From a virus (taxonomy: Duplodnaviria > Heunggongvirae > Uroviricota > Caudoviricetes), in IMG/VR virus record IMGVR_UViG_3300011339_000564, positions 14,318 through 78,317 of that record: 64,000 nt of DNA, one strand, 5' to 3'. This document shows, one piece after another, positions 858 through 45,644 of this stretch. Below the pieces are notes generated by a model. That model had not been told where the DNA came from. It worked only from the letters and a program-made list of their open reading frames with translations, and ran no database searches. Each line of letters starts with the position of its first letter. The stretch's first letter is position 1. The position numbers and the translations under genes are program-made.

Positions 858-1661
858 ATGGATCATTATGTAACTTTAGGGGTAAACAAAAATGCTACCC
901 CGGACGATATTAAAAAAGCATATCGCAAACTGGCAAGTAAACATCATCCCGATAAAGGGGGCGATACCGCAACGTTTCAACAAATTGAAGAAGCATATCG
1001 TATTCTCAGTGATCCACAACAACGTCAACAATATGACAATCCAATGCCACAAGGCTTTGGGCAGAATTTTAATTTTAACGGTGGACCTGATATCTTCCAA
1101 GACTTTATGAGTCAGGTGTTTAGGCAACAACATCAGCAACATCAACACCGCCAGAGACAAAAACCAGTATTTAGAACCACAGTAACTGTAACACTTGAAC
1201 AGTCATACAAAGGTGAAGAGCAAGTTATCAGACTACAAACACCTACACTTACACATGCGGCAAATATTCAAACTCCGAAAGGGGTTCATAATGGTGACCA
1301 AGTTAAATTTGATAATATCATACAAGAGGCAAGTCTTATTGTAGAGTTTAAAATTATACCACATTTAAAATATGATAGAAATGGAAATGACTTGTTATCA
1401 AATCACCCGATATCAATATTAGATTTAATTACAGGGACATCGTTTGAGTTTACTACTATTTCAGGTAAAACATTTGAAGTTACAGTTAAACCTAAAACGC
1501 AACCATTTATACAATTAAAAATTACAGGACAAGGTATGCCCATACATGGAACCAATCAGTTTGGCGACCAAATAATCTTGTTAAAACCCTATATACCTGA
1601 TATAATTGACGAATCAATTATTAACAGCATTCTACAATCTAAAAATAAGGAATCAATATGA
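858..1661 (+). CDS. J-domain co-chaperone (DnaJ/CbpA-like, no zinc finger)
   Basis: N-terminal J domain with the HPD motif (KHHPDKGG). The context YVTLGV...AYRKLA is typical of J domains. A Gly/Phe-rich linker ([15 protein letters not shown]) follows. Confidence 0.8.
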
Positions 1662-3919
1662 CAAATTCTCCGGAAATAGAAAACATTATCGAACAATCGA
1701 TTGAGTATGCCAAACAACGTAAACATCAATATGTTACAGTTGAACACTTACTTCTTGCATTAATTAATCATCCATCTTTTACTAAATGCGTAGTTGGCTT
1801 TGGCATAGATGTTGAGTCAATGTCACACGAAATCACTGGTTATTTAGATAGCTTACACGCTATTGTTTATACTGAAACTGAAGTAGTTCCACGCAAAACA
1901 AGTAGTTTAGAACGGGTTATGAATCGTTCTGTCACTCAGGTTCTATTCACCGGACGTAGACAAGTTACTACTATTGATTTGTATCTAAGTATTGCAAGTG
2001 AAGGTAACAGTCACGCACATTATTTCATGCTCAAATACGGTATGCAAAAGAATGAGTTTGTTGCGTACTGGCAAAAACACTATAAGAATGAAGGCGCCGG
2101 CAATCTTACTGAAAATCAAGCAGATGAAATTCTTGAAGAATATACTATTAACCTAAGTGAACTTGCTAGTCAAGGTAAACTTGAACCATTGATTGGTCGT
2201 GCAAAAGAACTTGATGATATTATCAATGTGCTTGCTAAACGATTTAAATCAAATGTATTGATGGTGGGTGATCCGGGTGTAGGTAAAACTGCTATTGCCG
2301 AAGGTCTTGCACAAATGATGCACGACAAACAAGTGCCTGAATTTTTAGAAGGTCATCAACTATATTCATTAGAAGTTGGTTCATTACTTGCCGGCAGCAA
2401 ATATCGCGGGGACTTTGAAGAAAAAGTCAAAGCCATTATCGATGCATTGAATACTAAAAAGAAAGCTATTTTATTCATTGACGAAGCACATACTATGCAA
2501 GGTGCAGGTTCAAGCTCCAATGGTAGTGTTGACTTTGCTAATATGATTAAACCAGCAATTACTAAAGGCACATTGAAAGTTATTGCTAGTACTACTTGGG
2601 AAGAATACTACGAAAGTTTTGAGAAGGATCGTGCATTAATGCGTAGATTCTATCGTGTCTCAATTGATGAACCAAGCAACGAATCTACTGTTCGAATTCT
2701 TTCTGGACTAAGCACACGATTGAATGACTTTCATAGTGTTGAAATTCAAGAAGATGCAATTAAAGCATCAGTTGAAATGTCAACACGATACATTCACGAC
2801 CGAAAAAATCCTGATAAAAGTATTGACTTATTGGATGCGGCTTGTGCTAAACAACGTGTTGCAGGTAATAAAGGTGCACATATTACTAAAGACTTAGTGT
2901 TTGACCAAGTAGAGAAGTTTACGGGAGTTCCTGCAGATAAGATGAAGGGTGATAATTTTGACCTTATCAATAACCTTGAGATTAATATCAAAGGTAAATT
3001 ATATGGTCAAGATGAAACCGTTCAGCAAGTGTTAGAACGTATCTATGTTAACTTTGCTGGTATCGGTAATGATACTAAACCAACAGGTAGTTTCTTGTTT
3101 TTAGGCCCAACAGGTACAGGTAAAACAGAATTGGCTAAGTTGTTAAGTAAGAACCTTGACATGCCATTGCTCAAATATGATATGAGTGAATACGGAGAAA
3201 AACATTCAGTATCTAGTTTGATCGGTCCGCCCCCTGGTTATGTTGGCTTCGGTGACAGTCAAGTCGGTGGTGGCCGTTTAATCAACGACTTAAGTAAGAA
3301 CCCACATGCTATCATGTTGTTTGATGAAGTTGAAAAAGCACACCCTGATATATTTAACATCTTCTTACAGATGTTAGACGAAGGTACTATTACAGGAAGT
3401 AATGGTAAGAAGGTTAACTGTAAGAATGCTATTATCATTATGACTAGTAACTTAGGTAGTGCCGATGGTGAGCGCAATAACATTGGTTTTGGATCACAAG
3501 ACAAGCAAGGAGAAGATGATAAAGCATTGAAAGAATTCTTTAAGCCAGAATTCAGAAATCGTGTTGATTTGATTTGCAAGTTTAACAAACTTGATAGCTT
3601 GGCTATTAAGAAAATTGTTATTAAGTTTACTGAAGATTTGAAAAAATCATTAATTGAAAAACACAATATCAATTTAGTATTGACAGAACCAGTAGTTGAG
3701 TATCTAGCTGAACAAGGGTATGACAAGAAAATGGGTGCTAGACCACTAGCACGTAAGATTGACGAATTGATTCGTGTACCACTGAGTAAAAAAGTATTGT
3801 TTGAACGCATTAAAAATGCTACTATTACTGCCAACATTGTTGGTGACACTATTGATTTTGCAGTGACACACAAATTAACAGCTAAGGTGAATGACGATGG
3901 CATTATTGAGGTCAGTTGA
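1658..3919 (+). CDS. clpA: ClpA-like ATP-dependent Clp protease ATP-binding subunit (two AAA+ modules)
   Basis: Two Walker A motifs (GDPGVGKT and GPTGTGKT). An IGF loop (NNIGFGS) sits just before [10 protein letters not shown], as in the ClpA ClpP-docking loop. At 753 aa there is no long ClpB middle domain. Confidence 0.85.
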
Positions 3920-5203: not shown

Positions 5204-6487
5204 ATGAAACAAATTGTCATTATGCCGGGAGGCTTTCATCCATTTCATGCAGGGCACGCCGCACTATATCAAAGTGCAGTGAAAGCATTTCCGAGTGCAG
5301 AAGTATATGTTGCCGCTACCAATGACACAAAAACAAGACCTTTCCCCTTTAATATCAAAGAAAAACTAGCAAAACTTGCTGGCGTAGCTCCTGGACATTT
5401 TGTACAAGTTAAAAGTCCTTTTAAAGCAGAAGAAATCACAAGTCAATATAATCCAGAAGAAGATGTATTAATTTTTGTGCGTAGTGAAAAAGATAGAACA
5501 GAACAACCTAAACCAGGTGGCACAAAGAAAGATGGTACACCTGCTTACTTTCAACCATGGACCGGTAAGAATTTACAGCCATTCAGTAAACATGCTTACA
5601 TTGCTTACTTACCAACTGTAGAGTTTGGACCTGGAATTCAGAGTGCGACTGAGATTCGCAACATGTGGCCTAAACTAAACGATAAGCGCAAGACTGCATT
5701 GGTTATGAGTTTATATCCGATAACACAGACAAATCCTAAACTTGCCGCTAACGTTGTTAAGATGTTAGATATAGGCATGGGTGAACGACAAGGTGTGGCG
5801 GAGGATAAAGAATCCGATCCAGTCACAAGTGCTGTATTAAATTTCTATAAGCCAGTAATAAATGATATCCACAAAGAAAAACTACCAGACTATGTTGACC
5901 AAGCTCGTGGATTGTTACAGAAAACAAATGATCCTGATATTCGTAGTAAATTAGTTGATATCTTTAAAAAGGGTAAAGAAAATCCATATATTCAAGGTGG
6001 CATTGTTACTACCGTTGGTGCAGTATTAGCCGGTGGTATATTAACTACAGCACAGAAGATGGGACTAAGCCCTGCACAAACTAACTTAGCATTACAAGCA
6101 ATATTGAATACAGTTATTCCTACAGTTGTTTCACGTATCAATGGTAAAAACTGGAGTGATACAATTAAGTATACATTAGCAAGTGCAGGTATAGGTACAG
6201 GTATTGCCGGCGCAAGTTTAGTAGAAAACGATCCTTGGGGAGATCAAGGTAACTTTGCAGGTGATCGACACGTTGATATTGGTGGAATTTTTACTAGACC
6301 TAAATTAGGTGTAGGTGATATGGTTAAAGTAAATGCAGGTCATTTCAAAGGCATCGGAGAGATATCAGAAATTAAAGGTGACCGTGCAGAAGTTTGGATG
6401 GACAGCTATGCTAAATCCTTCATGTTTGATTTATCTGACCTAGTAAAGTATATACCCGAATCCATAGATTACTTAGAAGAAAAATAA
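5204..6487 (+). CDS. Two-part protein. An N-terminal HxGH nucleotidyltransferase domain (NMN/NaMN adenylyltransferase-like) is followed by a GVAE motif and a Gly-rich hydrophobic C-terminal half.
   Basis: IMPGGFHPFHAGH (the (T/H)xGH motif of the cytidylyl/adenylyltransferase superfamily). RQGVAEDKE at about aa 195. Hydrophobic segment GGIVTTVGAVLAGGILTTA. Confidence 0.6.
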   Translation: MKQIVIMPGGFHPFHAGHAALYQSAVKAFPSAEVYVAATNDTKTRPFPFNIKEKLAKLAGVAPGHFVQVKSPFKAEEITSQYNPEEDVLIFVRSEKDRTEQPKPGGTKKDGTPAYFQPWTGKNLQPFSKHAYIAYLPTVEFGPGIQSATEIRNMWPKLNDKRKTALVMSLYPITQTNPKLAANVVKMLDIGMGERQGVAEDKESDPVTSAVLNFYKPVINDIHKEKLPDYVDQARGLLQKTNDPDIRSKLVDIFKKGKENPYIQGGIVTTVGAVLAGGILTTAQKMGLSPAQTNLALQAILNTVIPTVVSRINGKNWSDTIKYTLASAGIGTGIAGASLVENDPWGDQGNFAGDRHVDIGGIFTRPKLGVGDMVKVNAGHFKGIGEISEIKGDRAEVWMDSYAKSFMFDLSDLVKYIPESIDYLEEK

Positions 6488-9162: not shown

Positions 9163-9942
9163 ATGCGTTTTACAGAAATATCAGAATCTACAACATCAGG
9201 CTCAGTATCTACTGTAGCAATGCCACTAGGCAAAACTCAAACACGTACTCAAGTATCTGGTTTAGAACCCGTGAAAAAAGTAATGGGCGGCACTGCTAAG
9301 AAAAAAGGTCCATATGGAAATAGTCTTACTGAAGGTGCTATGAAGCAACTTTCAATGGATCTTAAAGAGTTAAAAGACGAAGAATTCAAAAAGAAATATA
9401 ATATGACTAAGCAGGAAGCCCGTACTGAATTATCTGCAAAGCCTGAACCCATCAAAGAAGCAGAACTATCTGAAGATGATATCATATTAGTTCCAGGACA
9501 GGGACGCAAAATGAAAACTGGATTTGTACCGCATGGTCAAAGTCGTGTAGACCATGAAGTAGAAATGGCACGTAGTGATTTATTCAGTGCGGCAAAGAAC
9601 GCTAAACAAGTATATGAAATGATTCATAGTGTATCTGAAGATGAGGGTCTTGAGGGCTGGGTACAAGAAAAGATTATCAAAGCCAACGACTACCTAAATA
9701 CAGTACGTGAATACTTAGAAGGTAAACAAATTCAACAAGAAGCTAGTAGTCTTACATATGAAGGTAAGATTGACTTTGCCAAAAAGATACAAAAGAATGT
9801 AGATAAGAGTAACAAAGCAGTAGTAAAGACTAGAAAAGAAGTTGGTGCAAGAATTGCTGATATTGGTGCAGGCGGCAAAGAACACAATGTTAAAACTGAC
9901 AAAGCGTGGGACGATGCACAAAAAGCAAAGAAAGCAAAATAA
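9163..9942 (+). CDS. Lys/Glu-rich hypothetical protein (259 aa), possibly virion-associated or scaffold-like
   Basis: Long charged ORF directly upstream of the giant protein gene. Confidence 0.5.
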   Translation: MRFTEISESTTSGSVSTVAMPLGKTQTRTQVSGLEPVKKVMGGTAKKKGPYGNSLTEGAMKQLSMDLKELKDEEFKKKYNMTKQEARTELSAKPEPIKEAELSEDDIILVPGQGRKMKTGFVPHGQSRVDHEVEMARSDLFSAAKNAKQVYEMIHSVSEDEGLEGWVQEKIIKANDYLNTVREYLEGKQIQQEASSLTYEGKIDFAKKIQKNVDKSNKAVVKTRKEVGARIADIGAGGKEHNVKTDKAWDDAQKAKKAK

Positions 9943-9943
9943 A

Positions 9944-12900
9944 ATGAGCAATATTCTACAAGGCTTAAACGAAACACAAAAACATGACGGTGTATTCTTG
10001 TTAACAGAATCTCGTACATACAAGTTATGGGAGAGTGCTGGACAAAAGATTAGTGAAGCACAACTAACTGCCGATCAGATTAATCAAATCTTTAAACAAG
10101 TTGAACAAGGTGCTACTGCCGCAGGTGGTAATCGTACAATGCTCGGTAAAGGTAAAGACGCAGCCGGCGCAGTAAAGCAAGCATATGATGATTTGGTGAG
10201 TAAAGCACAGAACTCAGGACCTATTAAAGGTGTTGATGCGATGTACGACAAAGCCGCCGAAAAATTAAAACAAGCAACTGGTGGCGATCAGGGTGTAATG
10301 AAATATGTACAGAAATATCGTGACTTTGCTAAAGAACACCCAGTAGCACAAGGTTTAATATATTCAGCATTAATTGCAGCCGCTGGTATCAGTGGTGCAG
10401 GTATTGGTGGTGCAGCCGCACTAGGTTTGTTTAAGATGGTAGACAAATTGTTACAGGGTGAGAAGTTTAGTACTGCTGTAGGTAAAGGCGTAACTACTGG
10501 TGCAATGGCTTATGGTGCAAGTAAAGTTGGTGATCTTTTCAAAGGTTCACCGCAAGGCGCACCTACTACTGCTGGATCAGACGCTACCGCAGGTGCGGCA
10601 CAAGATACATTGTCTGCGACTAGACAAGCAGTGGAAAAAGAAGCTATGGATGCCATTAAGTCTAGAATTGCCAATGGAGAAATAGCACCCGGCGATCAAG
10701 GTGCCATACGATATTTGGCATACAAAATGCTAGCTGGATCATGTATGCCGCCGCCGTCTATAGAAACTTCTGTAGAAAAATTAATAACACGATCTATGGG
10801 TGATGTAGGAACTAGCGCAACTAATACAGTGTCCGGCACATTGTCAGGTGTTACCGGAGAACAGATGGCTAGTCATCCTGCATACCAAGCAATGATTCAA
10901 AAGTTTGGCAATACACCCGGCGCTCGTCAGGCGGCTATGGCTGCTGCCAAGTCAGCAATTCTTAAGGGACAAGTCAATGAAAGTATCAATTTATCAGAAT
11001 CTCAAATCTTTCTATTGATAGGTAAGATTGTTGAACGTCAACGTAAACTTGACGAAGGCATCATGGATACACTTAAAGGCGCCGCAGGTAAAGCCGCCGA
11101 TTGGGCACAAACTAAAGGAACTAATTTAACAACTAAAGTTACTGCTGACAAATTATTACAAGCGTGGAAGAAAGCTGGTAGTCCAACAGATAGTTTAGAT
11201 GTTGCAAGCATTATTCAAAAAGCTGGTGTACCATCTGATTCAATCAAACAAGTATACACTACAATGCAAATACCTTTTGCAGGTGAAAAAGGTGCAGGTG
11301 CGAGTACAAAACGTAATATAGATGTTGATCCATCAAGTGTTGCACCAGCCGCTCCAACAAGTACACCCACTGCTTCTGCACCGTCAGCTACAGCAAATGC
11401 GCCGGCGGCAGATGCATCACAGCCTGCTACGGCCGCAACTGGCTCTTTAGCACAAGCACAAGAACTCATTGCAAAATTAGATCCAGAAACTAAAACAAAA
11501 CTTATATCAACATTGAAACAAGAGTTGAGTGTAGCTGAAAGTCGAATCAATGAATTATCTAATGAAAAATTAGGACAATACAAAAAAGCCGCAAGTGCTG
11601 ACGCTACTGCCGCTGACAAAGCAGGTGACTATAAGCGTGGTGATAAACGTTTCAGTGGTATTGTTCGTGCAACTAACAAACAGTTTGCTAATGATACTAA
11701 AAAACATGGTCAGCAAGGTGTGGCGGAAGGCTTAGAGCAATCATTATCGTCAATGGTAAGACAAGATCAGACTGAGCGGAATGAGTATGCAACCTTTGTA
11801 AAATCACAAGCAGGTGGTGATTGGTCCAAAGGGGCTAAAATGTATGCTCAACTCAAAAAAAGACCCATCGATGATATATTTGGTGATGCAATAAGATTAA
11901 ACCAGTTTATGAAAATGAAGTTTGATTTTGATAAATTTACCAATGAAGATTGGGACAATTATTGGTTGTTAGCACAGCATTGTGATAATAATCGTGACTT
12001 TCAAAAGAATGCTTTATCAATAATTAAAAAATATCAAGGTACAGATCATTCGCACTACAAATATCTATACGATAGAATCAGTATGGGTCTAACTGGTAAA
12101 CAGAAATACGGAACACAGAATATTAAAGAGCAAGGCGTGGCAGAAGGCTTCCCTCATGATGTTGACCATATGCCGGGTCCTGTGATTCGCAATGCTGATA
12201 TGACTACAGATAATGTCAAGACCAAAGACAAAGCAGAATGGGACAGAGCCACTGATAGCATCAACGCACGGGTGTTTGATGATATGAGTGAATTTCGCAC
12301 TGACAACAACGGTGAAACAGTTGTCGGTGATAGCGCAGTTTGGGCCAAGTGGGACAATGCTACACAAACAGGTTGGTTCAATGCCAAAGGTCGCCCATTA
12401 AAGCCTTGGCCTGTTAAAGAGCAAGGTGTGGCGGAAGGTGATGGGCCAAGATATATTGATAACATAATGAACCAGTATAAGGCAGGCTTGCCTGGCCAAA
12501 ACCCGGCGGCCTTATCTAAACCAACTAGAGCAGTTGATGCCAGAGGTCGCACACAAGAACAATGGGCACAATTAGTTAGGAGCAAGTTTCCGGGTGCTAA
12601 AATTACACAGGCTAAAATGATTGACGGGCCTATGCAAGCAACCTTACCTGATGGTAGAAAACTTGGATGGAAAAAAGTTGAACAAATTGATGAAATTATT
12701 GATCCTAGCACAAAGATGGCATGGGCATTACGCCACATCGCCGGGTTCCTTACTAGATTATTTCCTTACGCAGTGGGCGCCGGAACTTTGTGGGCAGCCA
12801 GTGGACTGTTGGCCCCACTAGTGGCTGCATCCGGTGGAGTGGCCGCGGCAATTTCTGCATTAGGCGGTTCAATGGGATCAGCTACAGGCGCGGCTGCAGG

Positions 12901-13795
12901 AGCAGTTGGCGGTGCCAGTATAATGCAAATTATTAAAAACTTATTTGCCGCAGACGAGAATAGTATACAAGCAGGAATTAAAAAGTGGGTAGAAAGACAA
13001 GTAGGTGACGAAGCCGATGTACAAGAATTTTTACTAACTCATGCCAAAGCCGCATATGACGGTAAACCTGGTTTCCGTTGGAGGGCTAAAGAGTGGCCTG
13101 TTAAATTAAGTAAAGATCAAGCAGAAGCATATTTAGAAAAGAAAGATAAATCTTGGCTTGATTATGAAAAGCAAAAAATAATCGATGCTGAAAAAGCGAA
13201 GGCTGAAAAAGATAAAGAAGGTATGATGGAAGAACAACTTGATGAACTAAATTGCTGGTCAGGTTACCATAGAGTTGCCGGCACTAAAGCAGGCTTTCCA
13301 GGTAGTTGTGCTAAAAATAAAACAAATGAATCAGAACATAAATGCCCACATTGCGGTGGCGAGATGGTTAGTGAAGAACTAATGAATGAAAAGAAAGATG
13401 CTTGCTACTATAAAGTAAAGAGCCGTTATAAAGTATGGCCAAGTGCTTATGCTAGTGGTGCGTTAGTTAAGTGCCGTAAGAGTGGTGCTGATAGCTGGGG
13501 CAACGGTGGAAAGAAGAATGAAGGTTCTATACTAGAAGGTATTAACCGAGCAGACGAAAGTTTGCATGATTGGTTTAATAAAGAAAAGTGGGTTCGCATG
13601 GATACTAAAGGAAAGATTAAAGGTCCGTGTGCTAGAGAACCAGGAGAAGGTAAACCTAAATGTTTACCTCAAGCAAAGGCACATAGTTTAGGCAAAAAAG
13701 GTCGTGCAAGCGCGGCTGCTAGAAAACGCAGAGAAGATCCCAATCCAGAACGTAGTGGTAAAGCCATCAATGTTAATACTAAAAAGAAAGACTAA
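9944..13795 (+). CDS. giant protein (1283 aa). Features are Gly/Ala-rich hydrophobic segments, three EQGVAEG motifs, coiled-coil and a C-terminal Cys cluster. Putative virion internal/ejection protein.
   Basis: ATG at 9944 lies just after the TAA of the upstream ORF; the track start 9842 is an in-frame upstream extension. Motifs: QQGVAEGLEQ, KEQGVAEGFPHD, KEQGVAEGDGPRY; CPHCGG...C...C near the C-terminus; hydrophobic block AVGAGTLWAASGLLAPLVAASGGVAAAISALGG. Confidence 0.75.
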   Translation: MSNILQGLNETQKHDGVFLLTESRTYKLWESAGQKISEAQLTADQINQIFKQVEQGATAAGGNRTMLGKGKDAAGAVKQAYDDLVSKAQNSGPIKGVDAMYDKAAEKLKQATGGDQGVMKYVQKYRDFAKEHPVAQGLIYSALIAAAGISGAGIGGAAALGLFKMVDKLLQGEKFSTAVGKGVTTGAMAYGASKVGDLFKGSPQGAPTTAGSDATAGAAQDTLSATRQAVEKEAMDAIKSRIANGEIAPGDQGAIRYLAYKMLAGSCMPPPSIETSVEKLITRSMGDVGTSATNTVSGTLSGVTGEQMASHPAYQAMIQKFGNTPGARQAAMAAAKSAILKGQVNESINLSESQIFLLIGKIVERQRKLDEGIMDTLKGAAGKAADWAQTKGTNLTTKVTADKLLQAWKKAGSPTDSLDVASIIQKAGVPSDSIKQVYTTMQIPFAGEKGAGASTKRNIDVDPSSVAPAAPTSTPTASAPSATANAPAADASQPATAATGSLAQAQELIAKLDPETKTKLISTLKQELSVAESRINELSNEKLGQYKKAASADATAADKAGDYKRGDKRFSGIVRATNKQFANDTKKHGQQGVAEGLEQSLSSMVRQDQTERNEYATFVKSQAGGDWSKGAKMYAQLKKRPIDDIFGDAIRLNQFMKMKFDFDKFTNEDWDNYWLLAQHCDNNRDFQKNALSIIKKYQGTDHSHYKYLYDRISMGLTGKQKYGTQNIKEQGVAEGFPHDVDHMPGPVIRNADMTTDNVKTKDKAEWDRATDSINARVFDDMSEFRTDNNGETVVGDSAVWAKWDNATQTGWFNAKGRPLKPWPVKEQGVAEGDGPRYIDNIMNQYKAGLPGQNPAALSKPTRAVDARGRTQEQWAQLVRSKFPGAKITQAKMIDGPMQATLPDGRKLGWKKVEQIDEIIDPSTKMAWALRHIAGFLTRLFPYAVGAGTLWAASGLLAPLVAASGGVAAAISALGGSMGSATGAAAGAVGGASIMQIIKNLFAADENSIQAGIKKWVERQVGDEADVQEFLLTHAKAAYDGKPGFRWRAKEWPVKLSKDQAEAYLEKKDKSWLDYEKQKIIDAEKAKAEKDKEGMMEEQLDELNCWSGYHRVAGTKAGFPGSCAKNKTNESEHKCPHCGGEMVSEELMNEKKDACYYKVKSRYKVWPSAYASGALVKCRKSGADSWGNGGKKNEGSILEGINRADESLHDWFNKEKWVRMDTKGKIKGPCAREPGEGKPKCLPQAKAHSLGKKGRASAAARKRREDPNPERSGKAINVNTKKKD

Positions 13796-19741: not shown

Positions 19742-19981
19742 ATGAAAGAACATATCTACACATCATCCAAAGGAGAGAGTTTTTTATCATGGGATGATTG
19801 GGCACTCCAAACACTAAACGAAAGTGATTTGAGTGTTTATCTTAGCCCCCAAGTAGAAGGTTCAACATTATCTGCTGATAAATTGGCTTTATATGCACGT
19901 TGGGTAGACGAAGAACAAATATTAACACACGTTGTTAAAGAAGATGATGTTATAATACAACAATCAAATGCACTCAAGTAA
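19742..19981 (+). CDS. hypothetical small protein (start moved to the internal ATG at 19742)
   Basis: AAGGA lies upstream of the ATG at 19742. The track start at 19712 lacks an SD. Confidence 0.4.
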   Translation: MKEHIYTSSKGESFLSWDDWALQTLNESDLSVYLSPQVEGSTLSADKLALYARWVDEEQILTHVVKEDDVIIQQSNALK

Positions 19982-20540
19982 TTTTATTACAGAATCTGCC
20001 GTAGATGAGTTAGCAAAAAAACTACCCTCATTGACTAAACACGACTATGATACCATTGATACATTAATGAGAAGTATTGCCAGTAGACATAGCATGAGTG
20101 GTAATGCATTACATGATTTGTTTGTAAAAAAATATAAAAGAACACCCGATAACTGGATTAAACATAAATTAGACGAAGGTGATGATTCAGATTTGCAACA
20201 AGAAGTTGATAAATTCTGCGATTGGGCATGTAAACGATTGCATATAAAATCTAAACCTGAAATTGAACTCAGTATGGATACTGAAGAAGCACAAAATAAT
20301 CATCATACAGGTGGTCATCAAATGGGCGCTGATAGTATTTGGGTATATGTAAATAATCGTAACCTAGTTGATATACTACGCACAGTATTTCATGAATTGG
20401 TTCATGTGCGCCAAGGTGAATTAGATATGATTAAGCCGGGTGATAGTTACCCAGGTAGCCCAATTGAAGCAATGGCAGATATGCTTGCGGGCAAATACAT
20501 CAAAATTTATGGTGAACAGAACCATCATATCTTTCAATAA
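19968..20540 (+). CDS. putative small zinc metallopeptidase (HExxH)
   Basis: FHELVHVRQGE contains HExxH in a short (190 aa) protein. Confidence 0.45.
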   Translation: MHSSNFITESAVDELAKKLPSLTKHDYDTIDTLMRSIASRHSMSGNALHDLFVKKYKRTPDNWIKHKLDEGDDSDLQQEVDKFCDWACKRLHIKSKPEIELSMDTEEAQNNHHTGGHQMGADSIWVYVNNRNLVDILRTVFHELVHVRQGELDMIKPGDSYPGSPIEAMADMLAGKYIKIYGEQNHHIFQ

Positions 20541-33144: not shown

Positions 33145-33825
33145 ATGAGTTATAATAAAACAAAAACAGATCCAGAGTTGGGTCAACGAGTACACGAACA
33201 TCTAGTTAAGATGGGTGTTGAAACTCCCACTAATCCAAACAACTATGACCGTAAAGAAAAGATAGATCATATTGAAGCGCATTTTACACACATTATGCGT
33301 ATCTTGGGTCTTGACTTAACAGACGATAGTTTGATTGAAACCCCTAAGCGTGTTGCCAAGATGTATGTCAACGAAATCTTTTGGGGACTTGACTATGACG
33401 CATTCCCTAAATGTACAACAGTTGACAACAAGATGCAATACAACGAAATGGTTGTAGAGCGTAATGTTAACGTTCAATCTAACTGCGAACATCATTTTGT
33501 AGTCATCGATGGACTAGCTACTGTAGCTTATGTCCCTAAACAAAAAGTTCTAGGGCTTAGTAAGATAAACCGTATCGTAGAATATTTTAGCAAAAGGCCT
33601 CAAATCCAAGAGAGGTTAACAGAGCAAATTTTTCACACCTTACAGTTCATCCTTGAAACAGAAGATGTTGCAGTTATGATTGATGCACAACACTATTGTG
33701 TAAAATCACGTGGTGTAGAAGATACGGGATCTAGTACTGTTACTTGTCGTTTAGGTGGCGGTTTCAAATCAGATCCTGCGGCAAGACAAGAGTTTTTACA
33801 GATTGCTAACAAAGGTTGCAAATGA
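33145..33825 (+). CDS. folE: GTP cyclohydrolase I (FolE)
   Basis: NCEHHFVVI (CEHH zinc site) and overall FolE-like length; SD AAGGAAGG. Confidence 0.85.
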   Translation: MSYNKTKTDPELGQRVHEHLVKMGVETPTNPNNYDRKEKIDHIEAHFTHIMRILGLDLTDDSLIETPKRVAKMYVNEIFWGLDYDAFPKCTTVDNKMQYNEMVVERNVNVQSNCEHHFVVIDGLATVAYVPKQKVLGLSKINRIVEYFSKRPQIQERLTEQIFHTLQFILETEDVAVMIDAQHYCVKSRGVEDTGSSTVTCRLGGGFKSDPAARQEFLQIANKGCK

Positions 33826-35129: not shown

Positions 35130-35612
35130 ATGGCAAACAAAAAATTCTTTTCAACAAAGACATACAGACAAATAGGTCCTGTCGCTTATCGTCAATGGCG
35201 TGCTGACAGTCATTGTAACTTAATTCATGGCTATGCTATGAGTTTTCACTTTGAGTTTGAGGCTGATACGTTAGACGCACGTAACTGGGTAACTGACTTC
35301 GGTGGATTACGACCTCTCAAAGATAAACTAGAAGAATGGTTTGACCATACATTACTAGTTGCACAAGATGACCCAATGCGTGAACATCTATTAGAACTAG
35401 GTCGTTTAAAGCTAGCTAAAATTACAGAAGTAGAACGTACTGGGTGTGAAGGTATTTCTGACTTTTTATATGAATACATTAACACAATTTTTTTGCCTAA
35501 CTGCGGTAGTGAAGAAGCTAAACGTGTATGGTGCTGTAGAGTAGAAGTCCGCGAGACTGATAGTAACATGGCAGGACGTAGTGGTCATAGGGAAGATAGA
35601 GAGTTTGAATAA
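35130..35612 (+). CDS. queD: 6-carboxy-5,6,7,8-tetrahydropterin synthase (QueD)
   Basis: SHCNLIHGYAMSF (the Cx3HGH zinc/catalytic motif of QueD/PTPS). About 160 aa. Confidence 0.7.
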   Translation: MANKKFFSTKTYRQIGPVAYRQWRADSHCNLIHGYAMSFHFEFEADTLDARNWVTDFGGLRPLKDKLEEWFDHTLLVAQDDPMREHLLELGRLKLAKITEVERTGCEGISDFLYEYINTIFLPNCGSEEAKRVWCCRVEVRETDSNMAGRSGHREDREFE

Positions 35613-36235
35613 TGTTAGAAACAATTTGCGATACATTAGTTGAAGCATATAAACGCAACTGGATTACCAGTCGTGATGGCAATGTAAGTATTCGTCATCA
35701 TGATCGGGATCATTTTTACATCACACCCAGTGGTGTGCGTAAGCAGACAATGCAACCGGATCAGTTTAAGAAGATTCGTATTGTTGGTAGTATGTTATGG
35801 GAAGAGCAACCATACACTGATATCAGTGCTAATCTTAAACCGTCAGGTGAGCTACCACTACACCTCGGACTACAGCGAAAAATGGGACAGCACAATAATG
35901 ATGTTAGAGTAGTAGTACATTTACATCCCACATACTGTGTTGCCGCTATGCACCGCGGCATTGAGTTGAGTAGTCTGGCTAATGACTTTCCTGAACTCAG
36001 TCGCTATACTAGCGTGGCACCCAATGTGGGTGATGTGCCTCCTATTAGCCAGGAACTTGCAGACCGCTGTCATGAAAATTTGGGACTAGATAAGAATGGT
36101 ACTATTGCTTATGACATTGTAGGTATCAAAGGTCACGGTGTGGTCGCTATAGATACTAGCCCATGGAGGGCTTTTGAACATATTGAACGATTAGAACATA
36201 TTTGTCAAATCGTATTAGCATCAGGGAAATATTAA
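35612..36235 (+). CDS. class II aldolase/adducin-domain-like protein
   Basis: SRDGNVSIR...FYITPSG resembles the fuculose-phosphate aldolase N-terminal signature (GNxSxR...TPSG). Confidence 0.5.
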   Translation: MLETICDTLVEAYKRNWITSRDGNVSIRHHDRDHFYITPSGVRKQTMQPDQFKKIRIVGSMLWEEQPYTDISANLKPSGELPLHLGLQRKMGQHNNDVRVVVHLHPTYCVAAMHRGIELSSLANDFPELSRYTSVAPNVGDVPPISQELADRCHENLGLDKNGTIAYDIVGIKGHGVVAIDTSPWRAFEHIERLEHICQIVLASGKY

Positions 36236-37469: not shown

Positions 37470-37667
37470 ATGAACAAAAAAATTACAGAACTATGGGAAC
37501 AGGCCGCTCAACGAGATGACTTACTAGACGAAAAACGGTATGAGCATTTTGCTGAATTATTAATTAGAGATTGTGCAAAACAAGTTAATCATCTGGCTAA
37601 ACAAGGTGGCGGAACTTGGGGCGAAGTCATTCTAGAAAACTACAATATAAGTGTATATAAAAAATGA
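37470..37667 (+). CDS. member of the small 'FAELIVREC' paralog family (65 aa)
   Basis: HFAELLIRDCAKQV is shared with six other small ORFs in the window. Confidence 0.45.
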   Translation: MNKKITELWEQAAQRDDLLDEKRYEHFAELLIRDCAKQVNHLAKQGGGTWGEVILENYNISVYKK

Positions 37668-38512
37668 GTCATTTAAAAGTATCAGAATTATTTTACAGTA
37701 TCCAGGGAGAAGGTCGCTATATGGGAGTGCCAAGTATTTTCCTAAGAACATATGGATGCAATTTTACATGCGGTGGCTTCGGTATGCCTAAGGGAGAAAT
37801 GAGTAATGAGAGAGATGTTATCGCAATTAAAGCAGAAGATTATACAGATTATAAATCCTTACCACTTGTCAGTACTGGATGTGATAGTTACGCATCTTGG
37901 GACCCTCGCTTTAAACATCTTAGTCCTGTTATCTCTACCGATTCTATTGCTGACAGTATTATGGATATACTTCCTCACAAGCGTTGGATGGATGAACATC
38001 TTGTTATTACAGGTGGTGAACCTTTGCTTGGATGGCAAAGAGCGTATCCAGACTTACTTTCAAACGAGAAAATGAGAGCATTGAAAGAGATTACATTTGA
38101 AACTAATGGCACACAAGAACTAAGTAAAGACCTTACTAACTATCTTCATCAATGGAAGATCAGCCGTGAAAATAACGCACTTACATTCAGTGTGAGTCCT
38201 AAACTTAGTATCAGCGGTGAGAAGTGGGAAGAAGCAATATGTCCACAAGTTGTTCGTCAATATGAAAGTGTTGGCTTTGTATATCTTAAATTTGTTATTG
38301 CTACTAAAGAAGATGCGATTGAGGCAGATAAAGCAGTTAAAGAATTTCGTACAGCTGGATTCAGAGGTCCAATATACTTCATGCCATGCGGTGGTGTAGA
38401 AAGTATCTATAATTTAAATGCTAGAAATGTTGCTATTGAAGCAATGAATCGTGGCTATCGCTATAGTGATAGATTACAGGTGCCTCTATTTAAAAATGAA
38501 TGGGGGACATAA
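37664..38512 (+). CDS. queE: QueE-like 7-carboxy-7-deazaguanine synthase (radical SAM) with atypical cysteine spacing
   Basis: YSIQGEGRYMGVPSIFLRTYGCNFTC matches the QueE N-terminus (QGEG...GCNxxC). The third cluster Cys is displaced by a long insertion. Confidence 0.65.
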   Translation: MSHLKVSELFYSIQGEGRYMGVPSIFLRTYGCNFTCGGFGMPKGEMSNERDVIAIKAEDYTDYKSLPLVSTGCDSYASWDPRFKHLSPVISTDSIADSIMDILPHKRWMDEHLVITGGEPLLGWQRAYPDLLSNEKMRALKEITFETNGTQELSKDLTNYLHQWKISRENNALTFSVSPKLSISGEKWEEAICPQVVRQYESVGFVYLKFVIATKEDAIEADKAVKEFRTAGFRGPIYFMPCGGVESIYNLNARNVAIEAMNRGYRYSDRLQVPLFKNEWGT

Positions 38513-41299: not shown

Positions 41300-41773
41300 T
41301 TATAGACCAATCTTGGGTGGATACATTGGGCCAGACTTTATTCGTTCACCACCGTCAAAGTAACTAATTTCTACTGGTAATTCTTTCCAGCCTAATCTAT
41401 GTGCAGCCATGATACGATGATTACCTTCGTTTACCCAGGCACTGCCATCATAGGCCACATTGATAAAAGGTTTGTATTCTTCACTAGAGTGTGAATGTAA
41501 TGGTAGCTTGCCGGTGTCCTTCATTATTTTCATAATTGCAATAAGATCACCTTGACGCACATTTTGTTGTTCGTTTCGCATACCGGGTATTTGTCTTAGT
41601 AAGTTAACAGGAATTTCAACTTTTCTGACAGTAGCAGTTGTCTTTCCCATGTAGGGCAAACCATTACGATCAGGACTTTTTTGCTTGGCATACGCAATAG
41701 CATCGTTTAGCCATTCCTCATTAGGCACATCAACACTAAGTGTTCCTTCAGTTATAAATTCTTTTGCTCTCAC
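41300..41773 (-). CDS. hypothetical protein (157 aa)
   Basis: ORF on the minus strand. Its stop abuts the plus-strand epimerase stop within 1 nt. Confidence 0.5.
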   Translation of the reverse strand: MRAKEFITEGTLSVDVPNEEWLNDAIAYAKQKSPDRNGLPYMGKTTATVRKVEIPVNLLRQIPGMRNEQQNVRQGDLIAIMKIMKDTGKLPLHSHSSEEYKPFINVAYDGSAWVNEGNHRIMAAHRLGWKELPVEISYFDGGERIKSGPMYPPKIGL

Positions 41774-42444
41774 ATTGATCCTTTAGAATTAACAAACCAG
41801 GGGTCAACTATAACTAATTCTCCATTACTACGTTGCATGACATTTTCGGTGTGCAAGTCCCAACCAAATTTGTTTATTCTACCCGATTGATATAATAGTT
41901 TCATTACACTAAACAAGGTAGCATACGTCTTATAAAAAGTAACACCTTGCTGTGTCATTGCATTATCTATAAGTTTAGCCATTTTAGATGATATTGGGCT
42001 AGAGAAGAATTTCCAAGTTTCAGGATCAGTTAGTGAAGGTAAGATTTGTTGCCAAGTCTCACCTGTAACAGCATAGTCACTTAATATCCAGACCATTGCT
42101 TCTTCAACACTGTTCTTTTTAATAGGCTGAAGATGTTCCATGTCAATTTGTATGTAATCCTCACCGGCAATATCGATTGTATTCATTTCATTAAATATAG
42201 GTAAACAAGAAATCTCAGGATGATTTTCACAGAATTCGTAAAACTTTTTAAATACTTTTTCAGCGTGACCACTAGGATCATCTGGCATTAATATTTTAAT
42301 CACATGACTAGTATCTTTAGCCCATACTCTTGCATCAGCTCCGCTACCAATATGTTTGTAACCTAGTGATTTTAAATGCGCGGCAATTTCTTTGAAGGCT
42401 GGTCCTGTTGCAGCCTCATCTACTGCAAATTCATTGGCTCTCAT
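41770..42444 (-). CDS. hypothetical protein (224 aa)
   Basis: ORF. Confidence 0.5.
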   Translation of the reverse strand: MRANEFAVDEAATGPAFKEIAAHLKSLGYKHIGSGADARVWAKDTSHVIKILMPDDPSGHAEKVFKKFYEFCENHPEISCLPIFNEMNTIDIAGEDYIQIDMEHLQPIKKNSVEEAMVWILSDYAVTGETWQQILPSLTDPETWKFFSSPISSKMAKLIDNAMTQQGVTFYKTYATLFSVMKLLYQSGRINKFGWDLHTENVMQRSNGELVIVDPWFVNSKGSM

Positions 42445-42623
42445 TTCTTGCGACCCCTAAACCCTACTGGCATCTGCAAATCATTAACGGGAAACATTGC
42501 TTTGAACCACTCATCAGTACCAGGCTTAGCAGTAATTTTGCTACGGTCTATAGGCACAGAAGATGTAGGTTTTCCTCTATGGTCGGTAACTCCTGCAAGT
42601 CTTTTAAGTTGATCTATGTTCAT
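42441..42623 (-). CDS. hypothetical small protein (60 aa)
   Basis: ORF that fills the gap, with overlaps on both ends. Confidence 0.35.
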   Translation of the reverse strand: MNIDQLKRLAGVTDHRGKPTSSVPIDRSKITAKPGTDEWFKAMFPVNDLQMPVGFRGRKK

Positions 42624-43174
42624 AGACTCTTACCCCAGCGTGTGTTAATCACATTCCAGTTGATAATCTTCCACTGTTCAGCCAAATACTTTTTCTTATC
42701 AGCACCGTAGTCTAATATCCACGCATGTTCCCACCAATCAACTAATAACAATATATCATTGCGTACTTCATGGTTCTTAATTGTTTTAATTTTACCATCA
42801 GTTGCTAAATATACCCACCCACTACCTTGTATCTTCATTGCTTCAGTTTCAAACTGTGACTTCATATTATCGTATGAGCCAAAATGTTTGTTAATAAAGC
42901 CCATCATGGGGCCGTTTGGATTGTTTTTATTTCTTACTTCACGGAACTGAGGGAACAATGTATTATGTAAGAATGCACCTGCATAGTTAAATTCTTTATC
43001 TCCGATATCTTTGTTATATCTTTCAGCATAGCCATGTGCTAACTTGCCATAGTGTAAGTCTATAGTGTCTACCGACAAAACCGGACTTAGTTCTTTTGGC
43101 TCAAAATTAAGCTGAATGATTTCTATATCTTGAGGTTTTGACTTATCCTCAAGTAACTGAATTAAATCACGCAT
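42620..43174 (-). CDS. sodA: Fe/Mn superoxide dismutase
   Basis: N-terminal LHYGKLAHGYAERYNK matches H..KHH..YV. C-terminal VDWWEHAWILDY matches the SOD signature DxWEHAYY. Confidence 0.8.
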   Translation of the reverse strand: MRDLIQLLEDKSKPQDIEIIQLNFEPKELSPVLSVDTIDLHYGKLAHGYAERYNKDIGDKEFNYAGAFLHNTLFPQFREVRNKNNPNGPMMGFINKHFGSYDNMKSQFETEAMKIQGSGWVYLATDGKIKTIKNHEVRNDILLLVDWWEHAWILDYGADKKKYLAEQWKIINWNVINTRWGKSL

Positions 43175-44955
43175 CAGTGTTTCAATAATAATGTAGAAAT
43201 GATGTTAGGATCGTTAGCACTGATATCACCTTCACCGGGTGCAACGATAACATTGTACTTCATACCGGCTGGTATTGATTTACGTTTAGCCATGTACTGA
43301 TTATAGTCTAATATAGAGTTGGCACTTAATCCATACTCTTTTGCAAGACGATTCTTTAGTTCAGGTAACTTATCAGGTTGTACTTGCCATTGGCCTTCTG
43401 ACCCCTTAACTAAGTTTTTCTTTTCGTCCTTAACTAATAAATCTTGGAACAAGTCATCTGGAACAATACGACTATTCTTAGTTTTATCTAAGTTAGCATC
43501 ACTTGCCTTAACTTGTTTCTCTTGTGATGTATGAGCACCTTCACTCCAATTGATAATAAAGTTAGGTGGCTTCTGACCTAATGCGGCACCAGCCATCTTT
43601 GTGTAAGCATAGAACTTAGTATCAGGATGCTTTGCAGCCATCTTTAATGCCAAGTCTAAATATTCTGGGCTGAAGAAGTCACCAGCATCATGCCAACGAA
43701 TAGTAGTTTGCCAACCTTTAGGGAATTTCTTATCACCCTTTTGACCAGCTTGTTCTTCTTTGCTAATCTCACTACTTAATTGATTGAAGAACCCGTCTGG
43801 ATCATTCAATAGATATGTTAATATTCTTCCGTCACTTTGCCATGCGTTCTTAAACTGAATTTTTCCGCCCTTCATAGCAAAACAATCTATTTTACATGAG
43901 CCTGCGCCCGGGCATGTATTAACAATGATTAGTTTATTTGTTTGTTCGTCTAGTGCAATACCAGTCAATGCCGCAAAGCCAACGTTGAAGAATTGTTCAA
44001 ACTCTCCGTTACTATGCTTCATCTTTTCGTTTTGCTTTAGTAATGATTTAGGGCGTTGTGACAATGTTTTCTTAACTGCATCCTCATCATATGTTGCACC
44101 ATCTGGACCTAAGTATTCAACTACACTACTACGGTGGATATAAGGCATTTTGTATCTATCTGTTTTTGTTTTACCAGATACATATTTTTCATTACCCTTT
44201 TTATCTACCTTAACATTACCTGCTTTGTCTGTATCAGGAGTACCAACAATACGTTTCATGTAATCTTGGAACTCATCGCCACCAAACTCACGGCTACTTG
44301 CTGGCAGTTTAGTTGCTTCTTCTAAGCCAGATAGTTTGCGAATTCTATCTAAGCCTTCCGCCACACCTTCATTTGCACTTTGACTAGCCAATTTATAAAT
44401 ATACGCAGTACCGTTGGGTAATAGATACGTAGTATAATTTCCTATACCCCTCTCACCCATTTGAGCCTGTTGAATTGTTATCATTTTTGCGCCGCGCGGC
44501 GTTGGGCCATCATTAGGTACCAGCATACCTTTATATTCTTTGCCTCCATGGTGCACAACTATACCAGTGTCGCTTCGTTCTACTTTTTCTGCTGTATCAA
44601 CATTTTGATTTGGCATCTGACCACCAGATTTTTCTGCACTGGCTTGAAATCCTTGTTGAGCCATTTGTTGTGCGGCACTAGGTGACATTTGGCCATCAGC
44701 ACCAAGACTAACTCTTGCGTGTGCAGAGCCAGCTGACCCTAACGCACCCATTGCACCTAATGCCATTGCACCTGTTGCGGCTGCTTTTTTCCAATTAATT
44801 TCGTCAAGTTGCTCTTCCGTCATACCTTCTTCTGATTCTTCATCGGGCATATCACCCGCTTTAGTAACGAATTGCTGAGGTGTCATAATTTGGATGCCAC
44901 TAGGTGCTCCAGGCATTTTTGGCTCTACGCCTTCGAATAGTTCTTTGAAATTCAT
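43174..44955 (-). CDS. large hypothetical protein (593 aa) with a Gly/Ala-rich N-terminal region and a GVAEG motif; candidate packaged virion protein
   Basis: NEGVAEGLDRI at about aa 200. AATGAMALGAMGALGSAGSA block. Confidence 0.55.
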   Translation of the reverse strand: MNFKELFEGVEPKMPGAPSGIQIMTPQQFVTKAGDMPDEESEEGMTEEQLDEINWKKAAATGAMALGAMGALGSAGSAHARVSLGADGQMSPSAAQQMAQQGFQASAEKSGGQMPNQNVDTAEKVERSDTGIVVHHGGKEYKGMLVPNDGPTPRGAKMITIQQAQMGERGIGNYTTYLLPNGTAYIYKLASQSANEGVAEGLDRIRKLSGLEEATKLPASSREFGGDEFQDYMKRIVGTPDTDKAGNVKVDKKGNEKYVSGKTKTDRYKMPYIHRSSVVEYLGPDGATYDEDAVKKTLSQRPKSLLKQNEKMKHSNGEFEQFFNVGFAALTGIALDEQTNKLIIVNTCPGAGSCKIDCFAMKGGKIQFKNAWQSDGRILTYLLNDPDGFFNQLSSEISKEEQAGQKGDKKFPKGWQTTIRWHDAGDFFSPEYLDLALKMAAKHPDTKFYAYTKMAGAALGQKPPNFIINWSEGAHTSQEKQVKASDANLDKTKNSRIVPDDLFQDLLVKDEKKNLVKGSEGQWQVQPDKLPELKNRLAKEYGLSANSILDYNQYMAKRKSIPAGMKYNVIVAPGEGDISANDPNIISTLLLKH

Positions 44956-45644
44956 TTCTTGTGGTTCCTAATAAATTGTTCTGCTAGCATTACTAATTCT
45001 TGCATTTGCTCAATAGATTCACAATGCCATCTACGTAAACTCTTATTAATATTGCTGTTTGGATCACGTGCTGTTTTAGCACTTGTACGATGTTTCTTCA
45101 TACCGCGCATTCTAGCGCAAAAACTAGCACGGCGCTTTGCGTCCTTGCTACCCTTTTTAATCTTGCTTGGCTTTTTAGTAACTGCTGTTTGAATCTTGCT
45201 ACCAGGATGACTACGGCGATAACTACTTACAGATTTTTTACTCATCCCACCTACACGTTTGTTATTGTGCTTTGACCAATTCTCGCCTTCCGCCACACCT
45301 TGACTTAATAATTTTTTAACAGATATTGGACCTGATTGATTTTCTGCACCGGTTAAAAATTCATTTCCCCATGGGGTTATCCAACCATCAAATTCAATAT
45401 CATTGCCTTGAACCATAATATCATTATTACCATCAAGGTTTTGATATCCATTCAACTCTTTGTACCATTTTCTTAATGATTGTAACTTGTATGGACCTTT
45501 GTAGCCTTGTTTTTTCAAAATAGAAATAATTTCCGGAGTAAATCCAACTGGTTGACCCTCAGATACTTTCTCTTTTTTGCTAATAGCAATAGCGGCTTGT
45601 TGTGCTGGATTTGCGGCTTCTGTTAAAATTTCTGTTATTCTCAT
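44952..45644 (-). CDS. hypothetical protein (230 aa). A GVAEG motif is followed by a highly basic C-terminal half. Internal-protein-like.
   Basis: SQGVAEGENW, then a Lys/Arg-rich tail (KKPSKIKKGSKDAKRRASF...KKHRTSAKTARD). Confidence 0.55.
   Translation of the reverse strand: MRITEILTEAANPAQQAAIAISKKEKVSEGQPVGFTPEIISILKKQGYKGPYKLQSLRKWYKELNGYQNLDGNNDIMVQGNDIEFDGWITPWGNEFLTGAENQSGPISVKKLLSQGVAEGENWSKHNNKRVGGMSKKSVSSYRRSHPGSKIQTAVTKKPSKIKKGSKDAKRRASFCARMRGMKKHRTSAKTARDPNSNINKSLRRWHCESIEQMQELVMLAEQFIRNHKK

Follow-up and report, generated by a model that had tools for sequence, protein, structure and literature searches.

The head of bacteriophage T4 holds internal proteins that share a capsid-targeting sequence (CTS), MKTYQEFIAE (PMC8442874). 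This 10-residue leader is sufficient to load foreign proteins into the head, is removed by the prohead protease gp21 after L/I-X-E (PMC9026906) and is the sole conserved part of the otherwise very diverse internal proteins of T-even phages (PMC3012670). Here we describe a putative counterpart of the CTS, the leader MRAxEFITE, on genes around a compact Fe/Mn-type superoxide dismutase (SOD) gene in IMG/VR virus record IMGVR_UViG_3300011339_000564 (positions 14,318 to 78,317, a stretch of 64,000 nucleotides that we call the window). The SOD gene is genuine and its product is probably active. The reading that we favor, at about even strength, is that this probably active enzyme is packaged and injected as a member of an operon of leader-tagged effectors.

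Phage genes labeled as SOD were already known from PA5oct-like phages, one Vibrio phage and an 'uncultured Caudovirales phage' record. The nearest SODs in cultured phages are those of PA5oct-like Pseudomonas phages (38.5% identical; EST35_0261 in PA5oct, sodB in MIJ3 and Callisto) and of Vibrio phage 2.275.O (36.5%; NVP2275O_049), which align over nearly their full length, belong to the same compact subfamily and come from jumbo phages of the same broad T4-related group. The PA5oct protein also has an N-terminal leader, ending in I-A-E (MNDSIKKYISIAE, followed by AA), whereas the Vibrio protein has a C-terminal extension instead of a leader. The PA5oct gene differs in its neighborhood, with ClpS, a small heat-shock protein, FtsH, S21, IF3 and a topoisomerase, and without a tagged array. 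The sequence-only reading had called phage-borne SODs uncommon, which is true of cultured phages (29 of 50,697 records, several of which look like bacterial contigs) and not of metagenomes, where 207 IMG/VR stretches encode a relative. Metagenome clusters at 78-86% identity to the window SOD number at least 120, there are 34 clusters at 50% identity with E<1e-30, and the SOD-bearing contigs reach 524 kb. A literature search returned no paper on the function of phage Fe/Mn SODs or on CTS-type arrays in jumbo phages; the setting found here, a SOD that stays constant in a hypervariable operon with a T4-like CTS leader, in an abundant lineage of uncultured jumbo phages, is new in the literature searched. 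Particle-borne SODs as a concept have precedents among viruses of eukaryotes: Cu,Zn SODs are packaged in the virions of chlorovirus PBCV-1 (A245R) and Megavirus chilensis, and vaccinia A45R is an inactive SOD-like virion protein. Their likeness to the window protein ends with that concept, as they have the unrelated Cu,Zn fold and no CTS-type leader.

The earlier assignment of the gene as a SOD is fully supported, with Pfam, PDB searches and structure prediction in agreement. Pfam Sod_Fe_C is matched whole by residues 87-179 (E=4.3e-24; score 84.9 bits, cut-off 20.9), whereas Sod_Fe_N, matched by residues 18-63 over profile positions 3-48 of 82, stays below its gathering score (22.6 bits against 27). 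The helical hairpin of the N-terminal domain is nonetheless modeled by AlphaFold2 (AF2), as helices 35-54 and 60-76. A phmmer search of PDB sequences matched 157 SOD chains, led by the cambialistic SOD of Porphyromonas gingivalis (1ues/1qnn; E=3e-23) and by Bacteroides fragilis SodFM2. The AF2 model, built from a 60-sequence alignment, has a predicted local distance difference test score (pLDDT) of 94.5 and a predicted template modeling score of 0.87; it replaced a discarded single-sequence model with a pLDDT of 36. Foldseek found 260 PDB matches to it at E<=0.001, of which the best 50 are all superoxide dismutases, and superposed it on Fe, Mn and cambialistic SODs with template modeling scores of 0.78-0.85 and, for the closest, root-mean-square deviations of 2.2-2.5 Å. 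Because its NCBIfam scores fall far under the equivalog cut-offs (73.4 bits against 348 for Fe, 53 against 300, and 42 against 363 for Mn), the protein is placed by sequence in a divergent subfamily, as an ortholog of neither cellular SodA nor SodB. Cellular Fe/cambialistic SODs (1qnn/1ues, 8avl/8avm, archaeal) share its fold, four ligands, Tyr34 and bridging Glu at 30% identity; in comparison, its core is ~25 residues shorter, with the helical-hairpin loop and the loop before the last strand trimmed, and a 17-amino-acid (aa) N-terminal leader is added.

The active site was followed through an alignment of 36 members of the compact subfamily, 85% down to 28% identical to the window protein. 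H41, H70, D146, E149, G117, W120 and W173 are invariant in all 36, and at least 90% retain H150, G119, H135 and Y49, which corresponds to Tyr34. When canonical SODs are added, H41, D146 and E149 are still invariant, and GSGW is likewise conserved across the compact relatives. The metal ligands, three His and one Asp, are thus conserved, and the outcome that the sequence-only reading had named as refuting its assignment, non-conserved ligands, is not seen; one member in 36 (P0164, DMWENSS) has lost a ligand, His150. Both SOD signature blocks had been claimed as well. DWWEHAW is there (residues 146-152, 42719-42739), whereas the supposed H..KHH..Y reads HYGKLAHGY (H41 to Y49), which keeps the ligand His and the gateway Tyr without the KHH pair. 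Two features make activity less certain. The His30 equivalent is Leu throughout the subfamily, and the outer-sphere Gln cannot be placed unambiguously: there is no Gln at the Fe-type position, and the conserved N134-H135 lies near the Mn-type N-Q, in a region where BLAST and HMMER place their gaps differently. Relative P0131 has N-Q there, and N134-H135 may be the equivalent of the Mn-type pair. We nevertheless consider the window SOD likely to be catalytically competent.

The SOD gene is the third of a minus-strand operon (Table 1) whose ORFs (open reading frames) encode, in order, 230, 593, 184, 60, 224 and 157 aa, and in which every junction is an ATGA, TGATG or GTGA overlap. The sequence-only reading had counted five genes; the extra one is a conserved 60-aa ORF between the SOD and a kinase-like gene. 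Its view of the module as inverted holds, because GC skew is negative only over 42-46 kb. Between 40.8 and 46.2 kb, predicted promoters and terminators were no more numerous than in shuffled sequences. Four of the SOD's five neighbors carry a leader, the 60-aa ORF having none, and the regular expression M[RKN]x{2,3}E[FILV][FILVA] matched, in a search of both strands of the window, four ORFs, all in the SOD operon.

The same tag was found at related loci, of which 80 were drawn from IMG/VR; it was counted over 84 related sources, in 70 of which a SOD was recognized. The genes adjoining the SOD differ between the 80 loci and nearly all start MRA(N/K/S/T)EF(I/L)(T/N/V)E. Altogether 130 of 1753 ORFs are tagged. 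In the 70 sources with a recognized SOD, all but one of the tagged ORFs lie within -5 to +5 kb of it and 117 of 118 share its strand, and none of the more than 500 ORFs in the outer bins has the tag. The codons behind the leader vary (Ala GCA 34, GCC 14; Phe TTT 38, TTC 23; Ile ATA 25, ATC 18, ATT 8; Thr ACT 20, ACA 8, ACC 7), and conservation ends abruptly past Glu9. On the variation among synonymous codons we rejected an RNA- or DNA-level element as the cause of the conserved 5' ends; together with the sharp end, it points to selection on a 9-residue peptide. With a DNA pattern that encodes the tag, at least 120 additional IMG/VR stretches were retrieved, most of which have no SOD. Of their 1431 ORFs another 213 are tagged, and the tag is therefore a genome-wide device of these phages.

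A close parallel is with T4 IPI, IPII, IPIII and Alt, in which a common core leader with an (L/I)-x-E end is the sole conserved part of unrelated, rapidly exchanged proteins that include ADP-ribosyltransferases. MRAxEFITE likewise ends in the T4-type prohead-protease motif (L/I)-x-E and is best read as a counterpart of the CTS. The leader here is of 9 residues rather than 10, an additional (Q/E)GVAEG linker splits the multi-domain members, and the tagged repertoire, known here from sequence, is far larger and consists mostly of enzymes: at least 35 sequence clusters in the vicinity of the SOD, plus another 30 at other sites. Pfam searches of 97 tagged proteins gave GNAT (14), DUF6934 (8), GP88 (5), DUF6321 (4), Kinase-PolyVal (4) and NT5C (3) and, more rarely, GH19 (2), NUDIX (2), ADP-ribosyltransferase (ADPrib_exo_Tox, 2), SLT (1) and Zeta_toxin (1). 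The tagged ADP-ribosyltransferases parallel T4 Alt, an ADP-ribosyltransferase head protein that gp21 processes (PMC9026906). Kinase-PolyVal, GNAT and ADP-ribosyltransferase (ART) domains are also shared with the polyvalent proteins of phages and conjugative elements, for which co-delivery with DNA was proposed (Iyer et al. 2017, as cited in PMC7824862), ART and GNAT domains being typical of such injected proteins (PMC7824862); the weak ParB-like similarity of one window protein is a further shared trait. Polyvalent proteins, however, are single giant multi-domain polypeptides, whereas the genes here are separate ORFs (60-593 aa), most with their own leader, and the window SOD is a single domain of 184 aa.

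GVAEG motifs had been noticed in two neighbors of the SOD, and both are confirmed, at residue 197 of the 593-aa protein (44353-44367) and residue 116 of the 230-aa protein (45285-45299). The motif is usually extended to (Q/E)GVAEG, and a GVAEG-type expression matched 16 of 143 tagged and 9 of 1270 untagged proteins. Orthologs of the GP88 protein have one to five (Q/E)GVAEG copies in their variable N-terminal half, and one protein has the motif directly behind the tag (MRANEFIVE-GVAEG). In short orthologs of the 230-aa protein the leader is joined straight to DUF6321, and this joint (MRADEIINE-DWQKVNKK) aligns with GVAE-GENWSKHN of the window protein. The simplest reading is that (Q/E)GVAE-G would be a second protease site that frees domains from polyproteins; a cut following Glu, with P2 occupied by a small residue, agrees with the T4 and phiKZ-type motifs given in PMC9026906. 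Two scaffold-like proteins adjoining a gp21-type protease (L125 2193-2987, L173 297-1442) contain EEGVAEG. Elsewhere in the window, a 259-aa ORF with the tag-like start MRFTEISES (9163-9942, +) overlaps by about 100 nt, in another frame, an ORF of ~1316 aa (9845-13795, +) with three QGVAEG motifs at residues 625, 764 and 861. Neither has an informative Pfam match, a similar gene pair occurs in L064 (4858-5475, 5475-7514), and the two ORFs probably represent another packaged polyprotein. A cytidylyltransferase-like protein (5204-6487, +; weak Pfam CTP_transf_like match) has QGVAED at residue 197, and the linker motif may thus also be used outside tagged proteins.

Further observations concern the tagged proteins at large. 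The commonest family (109 unique sequences, 118-141 aa) has a conserved C-terminus, ..PFKGYKRK or ..GFKGYPR, and an isoelectric point (pI) of ~7. Its genes stand in tandem pairs or triples (L183-L301; L255 1763-2520, L217 9262-10031), a layout that recalls T4 ipI, ipII and ipIII, and tblastn found no homolog of this ~125-aa family in cultured phages. Some tagged proteins outside SOD loci look, by eye, like peptidoglycan-binding proteins. In the window, a 190-aa ORF (19968-20540, +) starts MHSSNFITESAVDELAKKLPSL, apparently a degenerate version of the leader away from the SOD operon; its N-terminus is close to those of tagged proteins in L062 (4577-5155, MRFSDILTESAASELAQKLPSL) and L296 (MRYTEFIIESPATELAKKLPSL). 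At protease loci L099-L141, proteins of 66-81 aa encoded ~1 kb upstream of a gp21-type protease start MRYSDLKENY, MRAKDLLVEF or MKLNEFYEP. They hold the position of T4 prohead-core proteins, and their starts resemble the tag.

The SOD has a leader of its own. Alignments with canonical SODs start at residue 18-21 of the window protein, and the leader is modeled as a helix (residues 2-11; pLDDT ~70) apart from the core. Of 25 independent leaders of compact SODs, 24 contain [LIV]xE (10.5+-2.2 after shuffling; 18% of background N-termini); in the window lineage the motif falls at residues 7-9, the register of the tag. The only leader without it is that of P0164, the relative in which ligand His150 is lost. 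Among the compact SODs P0122-P0127, P0141 and P0156, some have long C-terminal extensions (247-368 aa) and no leader, and others form the C-terminus of larger proteins (P0124, 279 aa; P0156, 631 aa).

We propose that the operon products, SOD included, would bind the scaffolding core of the prohead through their leaders, that a gp21-like protease would cut the leader after Glu9 (in the SOD, MRDLIQLLE-DKS), and that the mature proteins would remain in the DNA-filled head and enter the host along with the genome. The SOD could then clear superoxide at the onset of infection, either shielding the incoming DNA and those iron-sulfur (Fe-S) and radical-SAM enzymes that are sensitive to oxidants, or dampening an oxidative response of the host, while co-delivered kinases, acetyltransferases, ADP-ribosyltransferases and hydrolases would reprogram the cell. 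Virion association had been suggested from the sequence for the neighbors and, by extension, for the SOD. For the tagged neighbors, the T4-CTS-like leaders, QGVAEG linkers and cargo types make encapsidation quite likely; for the SOD itself, which is drawn in by its tag-like leader and its place in the array, the question could fall either way.

Several observations weigh against packaging of the SOD. Its leader, MRDLIQLLE, is a variant without the Glu5-Phe6 core of the consensus and shares only M-R and the L-x-E register with the tag. On the tag matrix it scores -3.4 to +0.6, intermediate between background (-15.4, sd 7.2) and tag variants (up to 15). On this score we rejected the idea that the SOD carries the tag itself and call its leader tag-like and in the same register. 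In favor of packaging, the PA5oct ortholog EST35_0261 is flagged ESI-MS/MS (electrospray ionization tandem mass spectrometry, MS) in GenBank, with MS data from CsCl-purified particles. Because the same MS list includes plainly non-virion enzymes (thymidylate synthase, FolE, QueD, FtsH, ligase and ClpP), carry-over is likely and this detection is weak evidence; the PA5oct preprint makes no mention of superoxide. Relatives of the window phage such as PA5oct encode a T4 gp21-type protease, which also favors packaging. A five-sequence gp21 profile found 596 homologs in IMG/VR, and among the best 80 of these 596 loci, which are closest to PA5oct-like phages, none has a SOD on the same contig as the protease; neither such a protease nor a head gene of this exact lineage could be tied to the SOD contigs. 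No head genes lie within the 64-kb window. Finally, Fe/Mn SODs normally act as dimers or tetramers that hold a metal, and passage through the tail tube would therefore require unfolding and reassembly.

The most serious alternative emerges from the genome contexts of the SOD, of which there are two unrelated ones. Type A, which includes the window, has the order UvdE (-) / DUF6321, GP88, SOD, variable cargo / epimerase (-), glycosyltransferase (-). Type B has IF1-like, SOD, variable cargo and IscA-like genes, followed by genes that look like tail fibers (weak He_PIG match only), and in its cargo, homologs of the kinase-like, ParB-like and 60-aa genes of the window are frequent. In either context the SOD and the tagged array are neighbors on one strand, the SOD being the constant member within or at the head of a hypervariable set. 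The trio of IF1-like, SOD and IscA/HesB-like (Fe-S_biosyn) genes is kept down to ~41% SOD identity (L003, L178, L180 and many type B loci, as at L033 7750-8872). SOD and IscA-like ORFs often overlap, and in type B loci the tagged variable genes sit exactly between them. At ~41% identity, the flanks fetched around the trio contain no tagged genes. Because these deeper relatives place the SOD between the IF1-like and IscA-like genes, its ancestral partner seems to have been an Fe-S carrier, which suggests protection of Fe-S enzymes in the cytoplasm and is a further point against packaging.

On this account the SOD would be an unpackaged auxiliary enzyme, which by keeping superoxide low would keep Fe-S and radical-SAM enzymes of phage and host alive. 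Its N-terminal helix would be a structural or oligomerization element, and its proximity to the array would reflect an insertion hot-spot between the SOD and IscA genes, exactly where type B loci have their variable genes. The departure of the SOD leader from the tag consensus and the obvious cytoplasmic enzymes in the PA5oct particle list fit this view, as does the gene content nearby: the window and PA5oct SODs both lie a few kb from a GTP cyclohydrolase I and a PTPS/QueD-like gene, and the window adds a pair of radical-SAM-like genes, of which one is only weakly matched. The window genes 4-9 kb from the SOD are GTP cyclohydrolase I (33145-33825, +), PTPS/QueD-like (35130-35612, +), class II aldolase (35612-36235, +) and a weak radical-SAM QueE-like gene (37664-38512, +). 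The observation also takes in L001 (2459-3734), and in PA5oct FolE and QueD are ~4 kb from the SOD. These genes hint at a 7-deazaguanine-type pathway with an oxidant-sensitive radical-SAM step. A cytoplasmic role, however, leaves unexplained why 24 of 25 leaders contain [LIV]xE and why in the window lineage the motif keeps the residue 7-9 register of the tag. Moreover, the SOD of type A has left IF1 and IscA and moved together with tagged genes, which flank it and, in the window operon, are translationally coupled to it on either side. We regard an unpackaged cytoplasmic enzyme as possible, though somewhat doubtful.

A different objection concerns the leader, which might serve as a degron for the phage's own Clp-type machinery, bind chaperones or act in translation initiation; in that case the operon would amount to a standard cassette for host takeover, with no bearing on where the SOD is located. 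The window does encode a ClpA/B-like ATPase and DnaJ, and ClpX, ClpP, ClpS and FtsH adjoin the PA5oct SOD. The largest tagged family (~125-130 aa) has a pI of ~7 and is not basic like T4 internal proteins, and the tag occurs at many genome sites beyond the surroundings of the SOD. However, the tag is nearly identical to the experimentally defined T4 CTS (xEFIxE) and has the gp21 motif at its end, and the synonymous-codon variation speaks against an element at the RNA level. The QGVAEG motif resembles T4/phiKZ-type post-Glu sites and recurs in the two scaffold-like proteins beside gp21-type proteases, the small proteins in the prohead-core position near such proteases start MRxxE/D(L/F)xE, and the tagged ADP-ribosyltransferases have their parallel in gp21-processed Alt. 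Taken together, these points make a leader of another kind unlikely. It is very improbable that the protein is a non-catalytic SOD-fold module with a structural or binding role in the virion or elsewhere, like PAP4/FSD3 of the plastid RNA polymerase (SOD-like mitoribosomal proteins and vaccinia A45R being further non-dismutase precedents): the truncated N-terminal domain with Sod_Fe_N under threshold, Leu for His30, the equivalog score of 73 against 348, PAP4 chains among the PDB matches and the fusion of some family members to other domains (P0122-P0127, P0156) would fit, but relatives down to ~30% identity conserve the four ligands, GSGW, Tyr34 (Y49) and the bridging Glu (E149), with ligand loss in 1 of 36 (P0164), and the high-confidence model superposes closely on SOD structures.

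Table 1 Features of the SOD gene and its operon in the window
Feature	Position	Strand	Basis or remarks
Compact Fe/Mn-type SOD gene	42620..43174	-	184 aa; ORF call, Pfam, PDB matches, AF2 model, Foldseek
SOD leader, 17 residues, MRDLIQLLEDKSKPQDI; L-L-E at residues 7-9 (43148-43156) is a putative prohead-protease site	43124..43174	-	Absent from cellular SODs
His41 codon, metal ligand 1 (E. coli MnSOD His26 equivalent)	43052..43054	-	Invariant in both alignments (with and without canonical SODs)
His70 codon, metal ligand 2 (His81/His73 equivalent)	42965..42967	-	HMMER alignment to 1ues across a one-residue gap; invariant in the 36-sequence alignment
D146-W-W-E149-H150, metal ligands 3 and 4 and bridging Glu	42725..42739	-	D146 and E149 invariant; H150 in at least 90%
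Inverted operon of six translationally coupled genes, the window's version of the hypervariable leader-tagged array	41300..45644	-	Overlapping stop/start junctions
230-aa protein, first operon gene: leader MRITEILTE (45618-45644), middle region, QGVAEG, C-terminal DUF6321	44952..45644	-	Pfam DUF6321 E=4.9e-11
593-aa protein: leader MNFKELFE (44932-44955), variable N-terminal region with EGVAEG, C-terminal GP88	43174..44955	-	Pfam GP88 E=1.1e-23
60-aa conserved ORF immediately 3' of SOD, without leader or family match	42441..42623	-	ORF call, Pfam, PHROG
224-aa kinase-like putative effector: leader MRANEFAVDE (42415-42444)	41770..42444	-	PHROG 15752 E=3.9e-11; weak Pfam Kinase-PolyVal
157-aa protein: leader (V/M)RAKEFITE (41747-41773), weak ParB-like similarity	41300..41773	-	PHROG 8071 E=7.9e-4; no Pfam match

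The remaining genes of the operon recur in other phages to different extents. PHROG matches of the 230-aa protein fall at the C-termini of larger phage proteins. The 60-aa ORF is 87-97% identical, and also stands straight after the SOD, in L010, L022/L023, L027 and L079. PHROG 15752, matched by the 224-aa protein, is described as 'protein kinase; inhibitor of host transcription; positively regulates RNaseIII; negatively on RNaseE', and homologs of this gene come after the SOD in both genome contexts. Homologs of the 157-aa protein are present in other arrays.

As for the phage itself, megablast of the whole module against the 50,697 phage records gave no match and hence no close cultured relative, and the window as a whole had no near match in these records. 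Its family-B DNA polymerase is 49% identical to that of Sinorhizobium phage Phosso and 44-46% identical to those of Atu_ph07, Rak2/K64-1, 121Q-like phages and Vibrio phage 2.275.O. Because near matches are lacking and polymerase identities are of this order, sequence comparison assigns the window to a novel jumbo phage within the T4-related group, with the Rak2, PA5oct and Atu_ph07 phages as distant relatives. It further encodes a ClpA/B-like ATPase, DnaJ, GTP cyclohydrolase I, a PTPS/QueD-like protein, radical-SAM proteins, a ligase and UvdE. The DnaJ gene (858-1661, +) and that of the ClpA/B-type double-AAA ATPase (1658-3919, +) form a proteostasis set like ClpX, ClpP, ClpS and FtsH of PA5oct.

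From a biological perspective, proteins that a phage injects with its DNA act ahead of any phage gene expression and decide whether host defenses win. Except in T4 and a few giant phages, finding such proteins depends entirely on the proteomics of cultured isolates. If MRAxEFITE is a true capsid-targeting signal, the injected proteomes of uncultured jumbo phages would become predictable from sequence and metagenomes, and would provide a catalog of candidate host-takeover and anti-defense proteins: acetyltransferases, kinases, ADP-ribosyltransferases, NUDIX proteins, a zeta-toxin-like kinase, lysozymes and possibly the SOD. The broadest form of this idea, which we put forward tentatively and with less than even confidence, is that this jumbo-phage lineage loads an exchanging arsenal of dozens of enzyme families, an active SOD among them, for co-injection by means of the 9-residue leader and (Q/E)GVAE-G. 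Should the SOD be packaged, superoxide would matter in the first seconds of infection or during the life of the particle in oxygenated water, and this would be the first known case of a bacteriophage particle delivering a metal-dependent antioxidant enzyme. Should it instead be cytoplasmic, its pairing with an IscA-like carrier suggests that these phages protect Fe-S enzymes during infection.

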